A stretch of DNA of 53,879 bases from an uncultured Bdellovibrionales bacterium (GTDB taxonomy: Bacteria; Patescibacteriota; Minisyncoccia; Moranbacterales; DUUL01). The stretch covers positions 1-53,879 of the forward strand of contig CAZXUS010000003.1 of NCBI GenBank assembly GCA_964643985.1, written 5' to 3'. Shown one piece after another: positions 5,861 through 46,964 of this stretch (within the stretch, counting starts at the first letter, position 1; the number at the start of each line of letters is the position of its first letter). The notes beneath the pieces were generated by a model. The model made no database searches and was not told the origin of the DNA. It saw only the letters and a list, made by a program, of their open reading frames with translations. Position numbers and translations under genes: made by a program.

Positions 5861-6779
5861 AGAAATTCTTAAACAAGCCAACCGACAACTGCAAAAATAT
5901 TCTCCGACTGCCCCCCTTGATGCGGAAATTTTATTAAGTTCAGTTTTGAAAAAAAATCGAGAATTTTTGTTTTCCAATCCTGACTATCAACCTTCTTCTC
6001 AAAAAATAAAAACTTTCAAAGCTCTAATTCAAAAAAGAATTGAGCAAGAACCGATTGCCTATCTCATTAAAGAAAAAGATTTTTACGGCCGAACTTTCGA
6101 TGTTGATTGCTCGACCCTAATTCCTCGCCCCGAAACCGAACTTTTAGTTGAAAAAACCCTAGAATATTGTCATAAAGAATTTTATCCTTCCCAAAATATC
6201 GCTCTCATTGATATTGGAACTGGATCAGGTTGTATTTTAGTCTCACTTTTGAAAGAACTTCAAAAGAAGCGTTTTAGAGAATCTAAAATCAAAGCTTTCG
6301 GAATTGATATTTCAGCAAAAGCTTTAAGAATTGCTAAGAAAAATTCAGAAAGAATAGAGCTTCTTACTAAAATTAATTTTTTGAAAGGTAGTTTATTGGA
6401 ACCAATTTTTGGGAAAAATTTCTCTGTTTCTAATTTTAGCAACTGCTTTCCAGCAAATACGCAACTAGTAATTACCGCTAACCTGCCCTATTTATCAGCT
6501 GACATTTATGAAAACTGCCCTAAGTCAGTTCTTGATTTTGAACCCAAAAAAGCGCTCATCGCCAAAAAAGACGGCCTAGAATTCTATTTAAAGCTCTTAA
6601 ATCAGATCAAACGATTAAAACTACCTGATTTAGTTCAAAATCTTTATTTAATTTTTGAAATATCGCCGGAGCAAAAAAATCTTGCCGAAGAAGATTTTAA
6701 GAAGATTTTTCCTAACTTAAAAGTTAAATTCAGCAAAGACCTTGCCCAAAAATGGCGTTTTATTGAAATTTTCTTTTAA
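5847..6779 (+). CDS. prmC: Release-factor glutamine N5-methyltransferase (HemK/PrmC)
   Basis: Overlaps the prfA stop by 14 nt. SAM-binding motif IDIGTGSGC. The catalytic tetrapeptide reads NLPY (ITANLPYL) rather than NPPY. Confidence 0.85.
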
Positions 6780-36752: not shown

Positions 36753-37865
36753 ATGAAATATTTTATCCGCACTTTCGGTTGTCAAATGAATTTCTCCGAT
36801 TCCGAACGAATGGCAACTTTTTTTGAACAAAATAATTTTGAACCAGCCGACAAAATCGATCAGGCTGATTTAGTGATTTTCAACACTTGCGGAGTGCGCC
36901 AAATGTCCGAACACAAAGTCTACGGCCACGTTCACAATGTTTTTAAAAAAGACCCCCAAAGAAAAAAAATTGTAGTTGTCACCGGCTGTCTCGCTCACCG
37001 CGAAGAATTTCGAAAACGACTAGAAAATAAAGTCGATTTATTTTTACCCATCAAAGACTTCCCTAAAATATTAAAATTAATCGAAAAAAACAAAACTCTT
37101 TTAAAAAAATTAAAAGCAACTAAGCTCTCCCATACACTGGAGTATGGGAGTGAAGAAAATTGCTATCTTAAAATAAAGCCCAAGTACGAGAAAAAGGAAT
37201 CCGCTCTCGTGCCAATTATGACCGGATGTAATAATTTCTGCACTTATTGCATTGTTCCCTACGCCCGCGGACCTGAATGGTCTCGACCTTTTAAGGAAAT
37301 TCAAACAGAAATTAAAAAACTATGTCCTTACACGTGTAAGGACATATGTAAGGACATAACTCTGCTAGGACAAAATGTAAACTCTTACCGAGATAACGAA
37401 ATTTCCTTCCCGATCCTGCTAAACACTCTAGCCAAAGAATTTCCCAAAATAACTTTCAGATTTCTCACTTCTCATCCCAAAGATTATTCCGATGAACTTA
37501 TCAACGTCATTGCTCAAAACAAAAATATTTCCCGTCAAATTCATCTGCCAATTCAAGCCGGCAGTGACAAAATCCTCAAAGCGATGAACCGCCCTTACAC
37601 TCAAAAATATTATTTAAACCTCATTAAAAAAACTCGAGAAAAAATTCCGGAGGCTAAAATCTCCACCGACGTAATTGTCGGTTTCCCTGGAGAGTCCGCA
37701 GAAGATTTTCAAGAAACCGTCAAAGTTTTTAAAGAAGTTAAATTCTCCGAAGCCTTCCTTAATAAATATTCCCCCCGTCCCGGCACCGCCTCTTTCAATC
37801 TCAAAGACAACATTTCTTTGGATGAGAAAAAAAGAAGAGAACAAGAATTAAGAAAATATTTCTAA
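36753..37865 (+). CDS. MiaB/RimO-family radical-SAM methylthiotransferase lacking a TRAM domain
   Basis: N-terminal FGCQMNFSDSE..NTCGVR and radical-SAM CNNFCTYCIVPYARG. The ORF ends at ..EKKRREQELRKYF, right after the core. It contains two palindromic repeats (37125-37150 and 37322-37357). Confidence 0.8.
   Translation: MKYFIRTFGCQMNFSDSERMATFFEQNNFEPADKIDQADLVIFNTCGVRQMSEHKVYGHVHNVFKKDPQRKKIVVVTGCLAHREEFRKRLENKVDLFLPIKDFPKILKLIEKNKTLLKKLKATKLSHTLEYGSEENCYLKIKPKYEKKESALVPIMTGCNNFCTYCIVPYARGPEWSRPFKEIQTEIKKLCPYTCKDICKDITLLGQNVNSYRDNEISFPILLNTLAKEFPKITFRFLTSHPKDYSDELINVIAQNKNISRQIHLPIQAGSDKILKAMNRPYTQKYYLNLIKKTREKIPEAKISTDVIVGFPGESAEDFQETVKVFKEVKFSEAFLNKYSPRPGTASFNLKDNISLDEKKRREQELRKYF
37125..37150. 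repeat. Family F palindrome inside the miaB-like CDS
   Basis: CTCTCCCATACACTGGAGTATGGGAG is identical to 13285-13310 and is read in frame as ..LSHTLEYGS.. Confidence 0.85.
37322..37357. repeat. Perfect 24-bp palindrome ATGTCCTTACACGTGTAAGGACAT plus a 12-bp tandem copy, inside the miaB-like CDS
   Basis: Read in frame as ..LCPYTCKDICKDI.., at the position where family members usually carry a short helix before ..ITLLGQNVNSY. Confidence 0.8.
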
Positions 37866-43201: not shown

Positions 43202-43597
43202 ATGGAAAATTCCAGCAGAATGCTTTTAGTCCAAACTAAAATTAAAAAAATAGGAGGATCTGAATATTATCAAGGATTTTTGGCTATACATGAAACTGTT
43301 TTTTCTTTTGAAATAAAATTTCCACTTTTTTTCAATTATATTAACCAATTTTTAGACCCTTCTTTTTTCTGGGATTTATCAAACATCACGCTTGAAAATT
43401 CAGAAAAAGAACGAATCGTTCTCGATAATGAAGAACGTAAACTTTTCCTATTAGCAGTAGGAGCCGCTACTGTGCCTATGGCTAAAAACAAAAAAGGTTA
43501 TTCGACTTCTTCAAGTAAACTTTTTATCAACGACGAAACAATTAAAAAATTAAACAAACCAAAGTTTGATTGTAAAATACCAATTAAATTATGTTAA
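43202..43597 (+). CDS. Hypothetical protein
   Basis: 131 aa. AAAGGAGG SD lies upstream of the ATG, and a hairpin follows the stop. No motif recognised. Confidence 0.4.
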   Translation: MENSSRMLLVQTKIKKIGGSEYYQGFLAIHETVFSFEIKFPLFFNYINQFLDPSFFWDLSNITLENSEKERIVLDNEERKLFLLAVGAATVPMAKNKKGYSTSSSKLFINDETIKKLNKPKFDCKIPIKLC

Positions 43598-43652
43598 CCA
43601 TCAAAAACCCCAGGCCAAATAGCCCAGGGTTAAAAATTATCAGAAATTCTTA

Positions 43653-43895
43653 TTAAGCTGCTATTTTAAACTCTTTTCGATCACAATATTCTGCAGTTTT
43701 ACCCACATTCCACTGTTTCACGGGAGTTATAAAACCTACAACTCTAGCATAAACTTCAGTCCCAATAAACTTATTTGCACAATTTTCACATCGGTAAACT
43801 CCTTCTTTTTTCCAAAAACTCACATTGGAATCCCCAACTTTAATTTCCTTTCCACAATCAACACATCTTGTGTTTTTTGATATTGATTTTGTCAT
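43653..43895 (-). CDS. Stand-alone NrdD C-terminal module: Zn-ribbon plus glycyl-radical domain (80 aa)
   Basis: CVDCG..CENC, then ..TEVYARVVGFITPVKQWNVGKTAEYCDRKEF, matching the class III RNR C-terminal pattern EVYSR(V/I)xGY..WNxGKxxE..R. Confidence 0.75.
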   Translation of the reverse strand: MTKSISKNTRCVDCGKEIKVGDSNVSFWKKEGVYRCENCANKFIGTEVYARVVGFITPVKQWNVGKTAEYCDRKEFKIAA

Positions 43896-44044
43896 TTTGT
43901 TTTGGGGCTTATTATGGAATAACTTTTACTCAATAATAAACTCAATTATTTTTTATGTATATTTAACCTTGATCCCCCTCCTTAAATTCAAGGATGATTT
44001 TAAAAAACTTCAATTATCAAATTTCATTATCAATTCAATCTAAT

Positions 44045-46141
44045 TCAACTGACTATCTCAGAATAAACCTCACATTGCTGTTCTATTAAACACTTAGGAC
44101 ATTGTTTATGTTCTCCACTCAAATAACCGTGAATTGGACAAACACTAAAAGTTGGAGAAAGAGTAAAGTAAGGCATTTTATAACCAATAGCAATCTTTTT
44201 AACAAAAGACTTAACTATCTCAATATCATTAATTTTTTCTCCTAAAAAAGTGTGAAAAACAGTTCCTCCCGTATATTTAGTTTGAAGTTGATCTTGCAAA
44301 TCTAAAGCTTCGAATGGATCATCTGAAAATCCAACTGGCAATTGAGAAGAGTTCGTGTAATAAGGAGTCTCTTCGATTTTATCTTTTTTGTTGCTATTGG
44401 CAAAAATCATTTTAGGAAATCGATTTTTATCCTTCAGAGCTAATCTATAGCTAGTTCCTTCAGCTGGAGTAGCTTCTAGATTATATAAACTACCCGTCTC
44501 TTTTTGAAAATCAATCATTCTATCTCTCATAAAATCTAAAATTTCCTCGGCTAATTTCACCCCTTTTTTCGTTGTAATATCTTCTCTGATAAAATTCAAA
44601 AGAGCTTCGTTCATCCCAATAATTCCAATAGTAGAAAAGTGGTTACCCCAATAAGTCCCTCTCCTTTTAAACATATCCTTTAAATAAAATTTCGAGTAAG
44701 GATATAATCCATTTTGAGTAAATCCTTCAATTGTTTTTCTTTTAATCTCCAAGCTTTCCTTAGCAATGTCCATTAGATTGCTTAAACGTTTTAAGAAATC
44801 AGCTTTATCTTTAGCTAAATAACCAATTCGAGGTAAATTAATAGTGACGACGCCGATAGACCCAGTTAACGGAGCTGATCCAAATAGACCACCCATTCTT
44901 TTGTGTAATTCTCGATTATCCAATCGCAATCGACAACACATTGATCGAGCGTCCTCAGGATCCATATCAGAATTTACAAAATTGGCAAAATATGGAATTC
45001 CATATTTAGCCGTCATTTGCCAAACTTTATCTAATTTTTTATCATCCCAATTAAAATTTTTAGTTATATTATAGGTTGGAATCGGAAAAGTGAAAACTCG
45101 TCCAGTAGCATCTCCCTCGCTCATTACTTCCGCAAAAGCTTGATTAATCATATTCATTTCTTCTTGAAAATCTCCATAAGTATCCTTTTGCGGTTTTCCT
45201 CCAACAATAATATTTTGGTCCTTATACATTTTAGGACAATTCAAGTCCATCGTAATATTAGTAAAAGGAGTTTGAAAACCAACCCGAGTTGGAACGTTTA
45301 AATTAAAAACAAACTCTTGCATCGCCTGTTTGACTCCTTTGTAATCTAATTTATCATATTTAACAAATGGAGCTAATAAAGTATCAAAGTTGGAAACAGC
45401 TTGAGCTCCAGCAGCTTCTCCTTGAGTTGTATAGAAAAAATTCACTAACTGCCCCAAAGCTGGTCGAAGATGTTTTGGCGGTTTACAAGAAACTTTTCCA
45501 GCCACCCCAGTAAAACCCTGCGTTAACAAATCCTGCAAATCCCAACCGCAACAATAGGCGGAAACCTTGTCTAAATCATGAACATGAAAATCACCTCCTT
45601 CGTGAGCACGCTTAATTGATTTTGGATAAACTCTTTCCATCCAATACTTTCCACTAACAATTGAGGAAATATAGTTATTCAAACCTTGCAAAGAATAAGC
45701 CATATTAGAATTTTCCTTGACTTGCCAATCAATTTCACCCAAATATTTATCGACTAAATTAACCGCTTCGTCTAAAGATTTTTCAGTATTCCGCAATGAA
45801 GAACGCTTATTTCGATAAAGAATATAGGCTTTAGCGGTTTTATCAAAATCCAAAATCATCAGAACCTGCTCGATTGTGTCTTGAACTTCTTCGATATTGG
45901 GAATATAGCCAGGTCGAGCTTTTTTTAACAACATTTGAACCGCTTTTTTGGTGACGTTATCCGCCGCCTTCAGGCTTCCTTCTCCAATCTCTTTAAAGGC
46001 TTTGTAAACTGCTTCTTTAATTTTACTTTTATCAAATTCAACGATTGAACCATCTCTCTTGATAATCTTTTCAATAGTTTTTTTCGCCTTAGCTTTTTTC
46101 ACTGGGCTTTTTTTCTTTTCCGCATTTTTTTGTTTTTTCAT
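44045..46141 (-). CDS. nrdD: Anaerobic ribonucleoside-triphosphate reductase large fragment, truncated just at the glycyl-radical motif
   Basis: ATP-cone (IIKRDGSIVEFDKSKI), class III core and Zn site (CPIHG..CPKC). Ends ..QQCEVYSEIVS*, where homologs continue EVYSRIxGY... Confidence 0.9.
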   Translation of the reverse strand: MKKQKNAEKKKSPVKKAKAKKTIEKIIKRDGSIVEFDKSKIKEAVYKAFKEIGEGSLKAADNVTKKAVQMLLKKARPGYIPNIEEVQDTIEQVLMILDFDKTAKAYILYRNKRSSLRNTEKSLDEAVNLVDKYLGEIDWQVKENSNMAYSLQGLNNYISSIVSGKYWMERVYPKSIKRAHEGGDFHVHDLDKVSAYCCGWDLQDLLTQGFTGVAGKVSCKPPKHLRPALGQLVNFFYTTQGEAAGAQAVSNFDTLLAPFVKYDKLDYKGVKQAMQEFVFNLNVPTRVGFQTPFTNITMDLNCPKMYKDQNIIVGGKPQKDTYGDFQEEMNMINQAFAEVMSEGDATGRVFTFPIPTYNITKNFNWDDKKLDKVWQMTAKYGIPYFANFVNSDMDPEDARSMCCRLRLDNRELHKRMGGLFGSAPLTGSIGVVTINLPRIGYLAKDKADFLKRLSNLMDIAKESLEIKRKTIEGFTQNGLYPYSKFYLKDMFKRRGTYWGNHFSTIGIIGMNEALLNFIREDITTKKGVKLAEEILDFMRDRMIDFQKETGSLYNLEATPAEGTSYRLALKDKNRFPKMIFANSNKKDKIEETPYYTNSSQLPVGFSDDPFEALDLQDQLQTKYTGGTVFHTFLGEKINDIEIVKSFVKKIAIGYKMPYFTLSPTFSVCPIHGYLSGEHKQCPKCLIEQQCEVYSEIVS

Positions 46142-46223
46142 TTTTTTCGGTCCCCTGCTTAATTTTTAATTAGTATCTATTTAAAATAGTTTTACCTTGG
46201 AAATGATCCCACATTAAATTAAT

Positions 46224-46676
46224 TTAATTGGTTTTTTTAATTTTGTGAAGTTCTTTTACAAATCTTTCTCCGCTTCCAAATGATTTAAAAACTGAAGCAA
46301 ATCTCAAATAAGCCACTTGATCTTTCTTTTTTAACTTTTCCAAAATAGCCGTTCCTATTTTTTTAGAAGTAATTTCGGCTGTTCCTTCACAATTTATTTC
46401 CGCTTCAATTTCATCAATCAATTGAATTAGACTCTCTCCCTGAATTCTTTTATTAGTAGCTTTCTTGATTCCTTCTTCAATTTTATTTCTTTGATAAGCT
46501 TCTTTCGTTCCGTCTCGTTTGACTACCGTTCGATTTAAAATTTCGACTTGTTCATAAGTAGAAAATCGAGCCTGACATTTTTCGCATTCTCTTCTTCTTC
46601 GAATGGTTTTATTGTCGTTAGTATCTCTGGAATCGATTACTTTTGTTTCGCTATGACCGCAAAAAGGACATTTCAT
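46224..46676 (-). CDS. nrdR: Transcriptional repressor NrdR (start moved to MKCPFCGH)
   Basis: Zn-ribbon CPFCGH..CEKC plus an ATP-cone. The 21 extra codons of the track ORF overlap the NrdR box and the predicted transcription start. Confidence 0.85.
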   Translation of the reverse strand: MKCPFCGHSETKVIDSRDTNDNKTIRRRRECEKCQARFSTYEQVEILNRTVVKRDGTKEAYQRNKIEEGIKKATNKRIQGESLIQLIDEIEAEINCEGTAEITSKKIGTAILEKLKKKDQVAYLRFASVFKSFGSGERFVKELHKIKKTN

Positions 46677-46710
46677 TTTTTTTATTAAATTTTTTATTTT
46701 TTCCCTAAAA

Positions 46711-46726
46711 ACACAACATCTTGTGC
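46711..46726 (-). promoter_or_regulatory. NrdR-box-like operator (GCACAAGATGTTGTGT on the - strand)
   Basis: Fits ACAC-N8-GTGT (recalled consensus acaCwAtATaTwGtgt) with one arm mismatch. Lies 35-50 nt upstream of the nrdR ATG. Confidence 0.55.
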
Positions 46727-46748
46727 TTTCAATCTTCATTACTCTACT

Positions 46749-46777
46749 ATTATAATTTCTATAGGGAACCTTGTCAA
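46749..46777 (-). promoter_or_regulatory. Consensus sigma70 promoter TTGACA-17-TATAAT for nrdR-nrdD
   Basis: On the - strand, TTGACA is at 46777-46772 and TATAAT at 46754-46749. Confidence 0.7.
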
Positions 46778-46809
46778 GGAAAAAATTGATTAATTTTTAT
46801 TCTGACCAT

Positions 46810-46883
46810 AGGACTGTTTCTAATCACTCTTTTTACTGTAATTTTCCAATTTTGGTAACAAAATTGCAATTAAAAACGGTCCC
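46810..46883. mobile_element. Short (74-bp) internally deleted relative of the family D MITE-like element
   Basis: AGGACTGTTTCTAATCAC ... AAAACGGTCCC retains both ends of the family. Confidence 0.5.
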
Positions 46884-46964
46884 ATTCTATCTATTGAAAT
46901 TAAGCCCTTGATAAGCTAAAATAAATTGCGAAGATTCCATTTAATTAATTTAAATTTAACAATT

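Follow-up and report, generated by a model that had tools for sequence, protein, structure and literature searches.

Can a class III (anaerobic) ribonucleotide reductase (RNR) function when its large chain stops short of the loop that carries the glycyl radical? This question is raised by a locus on contig CAZXUS010000003.1 of assembly GCA_964643985.1, from an uncultured Bdellovibrionales bacterium that GTDB assigns to Moranbacterales of the Patescibacteriota; the whole stretch of 53,879 nucleotides that was analysed is called the window below. On the minus strand the window encodes a 698-residue NrdD (NrdD698; 44045..46141, stop codon TGA) that lacks a glycyl-radical loop and, downstream of it, an 80-residue open reading frame (ORF), ORF80 (43653..43895), that encodes a Zn ribbon plus such a loop. 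From sequence comparisons we consider it probable that ORF80 is an autonomous glycyl-radical protein derived from NrdD and that the two genes together encode a functional class III RNR in which ORF80, as an obligate small subunit, supplies the radical in trans.

The NrdD698 and ORF80 proteins

A sequence-only reading of the window had described an NrdD that ends at the radical motif and a small ORF that follows on the same strand, and the coordinates, Pfam and NCBIfam agree with that description. The check it had proposed, alignment of both proteins to NrdD profiles, came out as it anticipated: the match of NrdD698 to the Pfam family NRDD (PF13597) runs from position 1 to 540 of 562 (E 2.5e-184) and stops there, and that of ORF80 covers positions 507-562 (E 1.4e-10, its only significant family). 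The NCBIfam model NF006126 gave a similar picture, matching NrdD698 over positions 2-658 of 684 (1044 bits versus a cut-off of 548) and ORF80 over positions 642-683. The two proteins thus overlap in homology across the Zn ribbon, with the radical loop in ORF80 only, an overlap that argues for duplication rather than simple interruption of a gene.

Apart from its end, NrdD698 has the parts of a class III enzyme. Pfam places an ATP-cone at residues 25-114 (46069..45800) and found no intein or LAGLIDADG domain. The finger-loop cysteines C402/C403 lie in SMCCRLRL (44938..44933), and both this motif and NLEATPAEG are invariant across the NrdD alignment. The Zn ribbon CPIH-x9-CPKC (residues 668-684; 44140..44090) is kept in all relatives. 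The C-terminus reads CPIHGYLSGEHKQCPKCLIEQQCEVYSEIVS followed by the stop codon, and its last residues, EVYSEIVS (44048..44071, minus strand), look like the stub of a decayed radical motif: where relatives read EVYSRIVG(Y), the arginine has become glutamate and the radical glycine serine, after which the chain stops. The RxxG(Y/F) loop expected on the same chain of a class III NrdD is therefore absent from NrdD698 and is found on ORF80.

This truncation point is shared with two other loci, L001 (ending in QVYSRIVD and a stop) and P0161 (ending in EVYSQIVS), which are 87% identical. The window-L001 pair has a synonymous divergence (dS) of 2.0 and a ratio of nonsynonymous to synonymous divergence (dN/dS) of about 0.05. 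A common truncation point at such divergence and constraint indicates that the truncation is old and that the gene has been maintained since. Genetic code 11 holds throughout the window, where stops comprise 21 TAA, 5 TAG and 3 TGA and no long ORF is broken by TGA. An alternative code in which UGA specifies glycine was considered and rejected, as the long ORFs are unbroken and read-through of the TGA yields SGIRLNG and then a stop, not a radical motif.

In ORF80 the ribbon cysteines are C11, C14, C36 and C39 (43865..43779, minus strand). They are followed by the radical loop EVYARVVG54F..QWNVGK..DRKEF (43760..43668, minus strand), within the module TEVYARVVGFITPVKQWNVGKTAEYCDRKEF, which puts G54 (codon 43736..43734) at the radical position; read continuously, the loop is TEVYARVVG54FITPVKQWNVGKTAEYCDRKEF. 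A word-indexed search gathered seven proteins of 78-81 residues, ORF80 and six homologues at 68-78% identity, and the four cysteines and the entire radical motif are invariant in all seven. Zn-ribbon cysteines of NrdD are needed for radical generation. The glycyl-radical domain of the pyruvate formate-lyase type (PF01228) gave no match to ORF80 at E values up to 1, and neither NCBIfam nor PHROGs holds a dedicated family for ORF80-type proteins, the weak match in the latter being phrog_10675, of unknown function (1.8e-5). Searched against the PDB, the ORF80 profile gave only a marginal match, to the C-terminus of Thermotoga maritima NrdD (E 0.037).

Truncated and intact NrdDs in other genomes

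The closest homologues come from metagenome-assembled genomes (MAGs) of Moranbacteria and other Patescibacteria, in keeping with the origin in the candidate phyla radiation (CPR) that the sequence-only reading had assumed. About 110 further loci came from scanning one-genome-per-species, metagenome and viral contigs, and a script-based classification covered the roughly 61 that have a stand-alone radical ORF. The upstream NrdD lacks the radical motif in 22 of these and is intact in 13; in the other 26 no NrdD core motif was present in the available sequence, although tblastn found a C-terminal NrdD fragment upstream in 6 of them. Of the closest 120 NrdD clusters, 34 (28%) lack the radical domain and keep the Zn ribbon. 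The survey of related genomes for the same split that the sequence-only reading had suggested thus turned up the arrangement in many independent assemblies, well beyond what chance would give. Every NrdD without a radical motif at the fetched loci adjoins a small radical ORF, an association that is partly built in, the loci having been gathered through the small ORF.

The truncated tails are lineage-specific, with chains stopping after IYSRVL, CPKCMAKARV or CPKCVAHLPEKYSKKSAEVK, and some carry a visibly decayed motif (EQKTEMYFKVGEEG, EQKTEMYFKVGEEGLRVKNK). At L001 the order priA, ligB, nrdR, nrdD, small ORF, rnc, smc is syntenic with that of the window. At L002 and L003 the NrdD is full length (ending in EIYSRIVGYIRPVQQWNVGKSAEFLDRKTFTV) and the small ORF is still the next gene. 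An intact NrdD plus the small ORF is found in close relatives (L002, L006, L007, L009, L033 and others), and the cis radical loop has been lost in the window, L001, L008 and many others.

Pairwise NG86 estimates gave rough dN/dS values of 0.04-0.06 for truncated NrdDs, 0.02-0.03 for pairs of intact NrdDs and 0.04-0.16 for the small ORF. The truncated nrdD and the small ORF are both under strong purifying selection. In a neighbour-joining (NJ) tree of NrdD, built without bootstrap, truncated proteins are nested in clades of intact NrdD plus small ORF: L008 falls beside L006, L012 and L039 fall beside L014, and L038, L041 and L042 are sister to L044, L046 and L049. These placements suggest that the cis radical domain was lost independently about seven or more times. 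The earlier proposal had been that the radical domain is either supplied in trans or represents a duplicated and replaced C-terminus, and the comparative data appear to support both as parts of one history. The relatives with an intact NrdD plus small ORF would represent the duplication state, and the loci where the cis loop is lost and both genes are under purifying selection the replaced, in-trans state.

Eleven loci have both copies of the loop and allow a direct comparison. Over 30 residues the cis and trans loops are identical at 25-30 positions, and at 10 of the 11 loci the codons of 7-15 of those identical residues differ synonymously. The remaining locus, L054, has none, a sign that its loop may have been converted or duplicated recently. 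At 10 of the 11 loci the trans loop matches the cis loop of its own genome best or ties with it (mean 27.5 versus 24.8 of 30), and the two loops have residues in common that are particular to their lineage, PVAQWNGGKQ and QQWHEGKQ among them. Such tracking would be expected if both loops must fit the same barrel and activase, or if both are in use and an occasional gene conversion is therefore tolerated.

Small radical proteins extend well beyond these loci. Searched exhaustively with a profile, 1.84 billion cluster representatives yielded 3143 matches, and about 140 of the top 150 start with methionine, are 42-136 residues long, and join the NrdD loop to unrelated N-termini, a few obvious fragments excepted. 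In many lineages the nrdG gene lies on the same strand within a few hundred base pairs 3' of the small ORF, for example at L038, L041, L042, L058, L029 and L083, and at L116, L118 and L119 the order is nrdD lacking the radical domain, small ORF, nrdG. L004 and L005 have no nrdD, and the neighbours of their small ORF encode a DnaB-type helicase and an RNA ligase, a phage-like context; the viral contigs L113 and L115 encode versions of 47 and 66 residues. One subfamily is distinguished by a longer ribbon (about 100-116 residues), and in four organisms its gene directly follows one for a Fur-family (PerR-like) regulator (L051:2718-4409, L052:3601-4979, L062:1567-2248 and L066:2064-3405). In three of the four a desulfoferrodoxin gene is directly next, with or without a rubrerythrin/EncFtn-like gene, a neighbourhood that by its gene content is an oxidative-stress context. 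The L051 desulfoferrodoxin reading frame continues into a Fpg-type DNA glycosylase.

A proposed two-subunit reductase and its alternatives

In the two-gene reductase that we favor, nrdR (the gene upstream of nrdD), nrdD and ORF80 would be co-transcribed, and NrdG, presumably encoded elsewhere in the genome, would take hydrogen from G54 of ORF80. The activated ORF80 would then dock on NrdD698, whose barrel, finger-loop cysteines and own ribbon are intact, and its glycine loop would insert beside C402/C403, where a thiyl radical would form and nucleotides would be reduced.

Oxygen destroys glycyl radical enzymes by cleaving the chain at the radical glycine, which in NrdD is G580 in T4 and G681 in E. 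coli. The sole repair that is known for such damage is that of pyruvate formate-lyase by GrcA/YfiD. By analogy, the window NrdD ends where an oxygen-cleaved NrdD would end, and ORF80, in which ribbon and loop form one unit, suffices to explain this without ORF81-like proteins. In the history that we propose, the C-terminal module of NrdD would have been duplicated into a stand-alone gene whose product probably acted at first as a spare part once oxygen had cleaved NrdD, much as GrcA/YfiD does for pyruvate formate-lyase, and the cis loop would then have been dropped repeatedly, the lineage of the window included. With a small protein able to complement a chain severed at the radical glycine, NrdD could afford to lose the cis loop, which would explain the repeated losses. 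We lean, by a modest margin of belief, toward such a spare-part origin of the small gene; the copies in clusters of Fur/PerR-like regulator and superoxide reductase genes and those on phages would fit an original repair role. Held with the same guarded preference is the wider proposal of a widespread undescribed NrdD-type family that repairs oxygen-cleaved NrdD, has thereby permitted cis losses and has given rise to obligate two-subunit reductases in Patescibacteria, DPANN archaea and GC-rich lineages.

Several points weigh against this two-subunit picture. Docking of ORF80, its activation by NrdG and the reductase activity itself are steps that we infer. No nrdG was found in the 54-kb window, as the sequence-only reading had also noted; the only radical S-adenosylmethionine-like protein of the window with a CxxxCxxC motif (36753..37865, plus strand) has by eye the N-terminus of a MiaB/RimO-type methylthiotransferase, not of NrdG. 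As NrdD698 retains its own Zn ribbon, the complex would hold two ribbons. AlphaFold2 modelled ORF80 alone, from the seven-sequence alignment, with a mean predicted local distance difference test score (pLDDT) of 56 and below 50 in the radical loop; in this low-confidence model a β-hairpin comes after the ribbon, and G54 sits at the tip of the hairpin. The dS values are saturated (1.2 to >3), making the dN/dS values rough, although their direction is clear. Finally, the oxidative-stress context comes from the more distant longer-ribbon subfamily and not from the clade of the window.

The alternative that survives best, although we think it unlikely, is that ORF80 acts as a regulator or decoy, for instance by buffering radicals or by titrating NrdG as a competing substrate, with the truncated NrdD inactive or differently used. 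Such a role would account for the 13 loci where the small ORF sits beside an intact NrdD, whose catalysis needs none, and for the stress clusters and phages in which it occurs apart from nrdD. However, the truncated NrdD is about as constrained as the intact form (dN/dS about 0.05) and keeps all catalytic motifs, which is hard to square with an enzyme that never gains a radical. The loss of the cis domain only where a small ORF follows, among the fetched loci, and the tracking of the own-genome cis loop by the trans loop also speak for a catalytic part.

Less likely again is that nrdD is decaying, its stop being a recent inactivating mutation and ORF80 the remnant of an older duplication. The terminal residues do resemble a mutated motif, and the codons past the stop are faintly like the lost loop (21-33 of 78 identical to intact relatives, with a p value that lies between 0.005 and 0.6 according to the reference used). 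A recent mutation is at odds with the same truncation point in L001 and P0161, with the divergence and constraint of the window-L001 pair, and with the truncation of more than a quarter of the near relatives.

That the two ORFs are fused into one NrdD chain, by recoding (bypass, frameshift or read-through) or by RNA or protein splicing, we consider very improbable. Introns and inteins often break up RNR genes, phage nrdD included (PMC3653736), and the spacer contains a conserved hairpin. Against this, Rfam gave no match, and the distance between the two genes is anything from -50 to 279 bp depending on the locus. The ORFs do not share a reading frame, and beyond the nrdD stop come three more. 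ORF80 moreover has its own ATG and a ribbon that duplicates that of NrdD, such that a fused chain would have two. The possibility that the gene is in fact continuous and was broken by an assembly or sequencing error, for which it can be said that the sequence is a metagenome-type contig, is negligible given that a truncated NrdD plus small ORF recurs in many JGI, ENA, NCBI and Logan contigs that are divergent in DNA and differ in their tails.

The proposed pair of an obligate small subunit and a truncated NrdD has a counterpart in the autonomous glycyl radical cofactors that serve pyruvate formate-lyase as spare parts, GrcA/YfiD (IPR011140) in E. coli and Y06I in phage T4. ORF80 resembles these in being a small stand-alone radical protein of a kind that is paired with an intact NrdD at 13 related loci, and its family likewise includes phage-encoded versions and homologues in an oxidative-stress context. 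Like them, it may be activated by the activase of the parent enzyme and complement a chain that ends at the radical glycine. Unlike them, ORF80 derives from NrdD (Pfam NRDD, no PF01228) and has its own Zn ribbon, and is thus an analogue, not a homologue; its parent in the window is genetically truncated, which would make it an obligate rather than a repair part, and it is encoded directly 3' of that parent. Canonical class III NrdDs (T4, 1H7A; T. maritima, 4COI/4U3E; Prevotella copri, 8P23) are single chains. The window pair shares with them the ATP-cone, barrel core, finger-loop cysteine(s), Zn ribbon and RVVG(Y/F) loop, but has the loop on a separate polypeptide and the ribbon twice, once per chain.

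In phages, group I introns, inteins or homing endonuclease genes interrupt nrdD, nrdA and nrdJ (PMC3653736). The window pair is like such split genes in that a catalytic subunit comes from two adjacent ORFs, but it has no intron, intein or endonuclease, its breakpoint falls at the radical glycine, and it represents an old arrangement that recurs and is found mainly in cellular genomes (Patescibacteria and others). Benzylsuccinate synthase beta and gamma are small accessory subunits of a glycyl radical enzyme (PMC12590467), comparable to ORF80 in having a role in a complex but, unlike it, without a radical glycine.

Spare-part proteins have so far been reported for formate lyases only (2026 review, PMC13450708), although Andorfer et al. 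(2021) speculated on spare parts for other glycyl radical enzymes (PMC8683613). Open-access papers and bioRxiv yielded no description of an NrdD spare part or split radical domain, and the passages of large RNR phylogeny papers reached there by keyword search do not mention an NrdD without a radical domain. ORF80 and its relatives look like the first spare-part radical protein for a class III RNR. The locus and its relatives offer a testable spare-part candidate for an essential anaerobic RNR, and the natural deletions of the cis domain permit a direct assay of in-trans function. ORF80 also offers a minimal 80-residue substrate for studies of activation by NrdG. Were the proposal correct, class III RNR would not always be single-chain, and annotators would have to read an nrdD labelled "truncated" and accompanied by a small "NrdD fragment" gene as a functional unit and not as a pseudogene. 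It would also bear on how tiny anaerobic symbionts (CPR and DPANN) cope with oxygen.

Transcription signals, spacers and variant loci

By ORF calls and Pfam, nrdR, nrdD and ORF80 lie in that order, all on the minus strand. The nrdR gene (46224..46739) encodes a repressor with a Zn ribbon and an ATP-cone (PF22811, PF03477); its start is likely the ATG at 46676 (MKCPFCGH...) and not the ORF-finder start at 46739, homologues of 149-155 residues beginning MKCP. Upstream of nrdR is a candidate sigma-70 promoter, TTGACA-17-TATAAT (46749..46777, minus strand), identified solely by its 12/12 consensus match and likely the promoter of the nrdR-nrdD-ORF80 unit. Just past its -10 box we read a palindrome, CACAAGATGTTGTG (46712..46725, minus strand). 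It resembles what we take to be the consensus of the NrdR box and suggests autoregulation of the unit.

Directly 3' of ORF80 is a predicted intrinsic terminator, a 10-bp stem followed by UUUUU (43603..43630, minus strand), with a folding energy of -19.2 kcal/mol over a 57-nt segment (z -3.74 versus shuffles). Its position makes ORF80 the likely last gene of the nrd transcription unit and, with the promoter before nrdR, suggests that nrdR, nrdD and ORF80 are probably transcribed as one unit.

The nrdD-ORF80 spacer, put at about 150 bp in the sequence-only reading, is 149 bp long (43896..44044, minus strand) and contains no ORF. An intron or ribozyme was rejected on that ground and on the absence of any match in an Rfam scan of 43400..46900, in keeping with the earlier view that the spacer holds neither an intron nor a homing endonuclease gene. 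The hairpin noted there is present as the inverted repeat TCCTTGA-N15-TCAAGG (43967..43994, minus strand), and the same repeat lies 5' of the small ORF at L001:5941-5970, L002:2792-2822, L008:5927-5972 and L033:3936-3970. Over the five loci its arms change compensatorily (CCTTGA/TCAAGG, CTTCGAA/TTCGAAG, CCTCGA/TCGAGG) around a loop of 15-31 nt, always with GGGG ahead of the 3' arm and then a T/A-rich ATATA stretch. This covariation is the sole support for the hairpin. A stable RNA structure was rejected, as the folding energy is no better than that of shuffles (z 0.37). Candidate roles for the repeat are a weak attenuator, a processing site or an operator or other binding site.

The spacers of L002 (2573-2851) and L003 (478-849) contain a GC-rich palindrome, CCTGCCTG(A/C)CGGCAGGCAGG, conspicuous in these AT-rich genomes and a candidate terminator or repeat element. 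At the GC-rich loci L070 (1-200) and L094 (1-330) the large NrdD ends past a degenerate metal site, CPxH..CPxxH or CPH, and the nrdD stop overlaps the ATG of the small ORF (ATGGCTGA, ATGCATAA), which suggests translational coupling. The small ORF lacks a ribbon of its own at these two loci, at L083 and L109, which are also GC-rich, and at L029, from a Woesearchaeota MAG.

Two further loci show variations on the arrangement. At L118 (1-5603) an NrdD with LAGLIDADG intein domains and without a radical domain is followed by a 52-residue radical mini-protein, and the cluster continues with nrdG, dUTPase, dCMP deaminase and ThyX genes, a nucleotide-metabolism cluster that is possibly from a large phage. 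At L009 part of the radical loop has been duplicated once more in tandem: directly past the small ORF, a second, out-of-frame fragment (6056-6289) again encodes MEVYSRSVGYIYPV.

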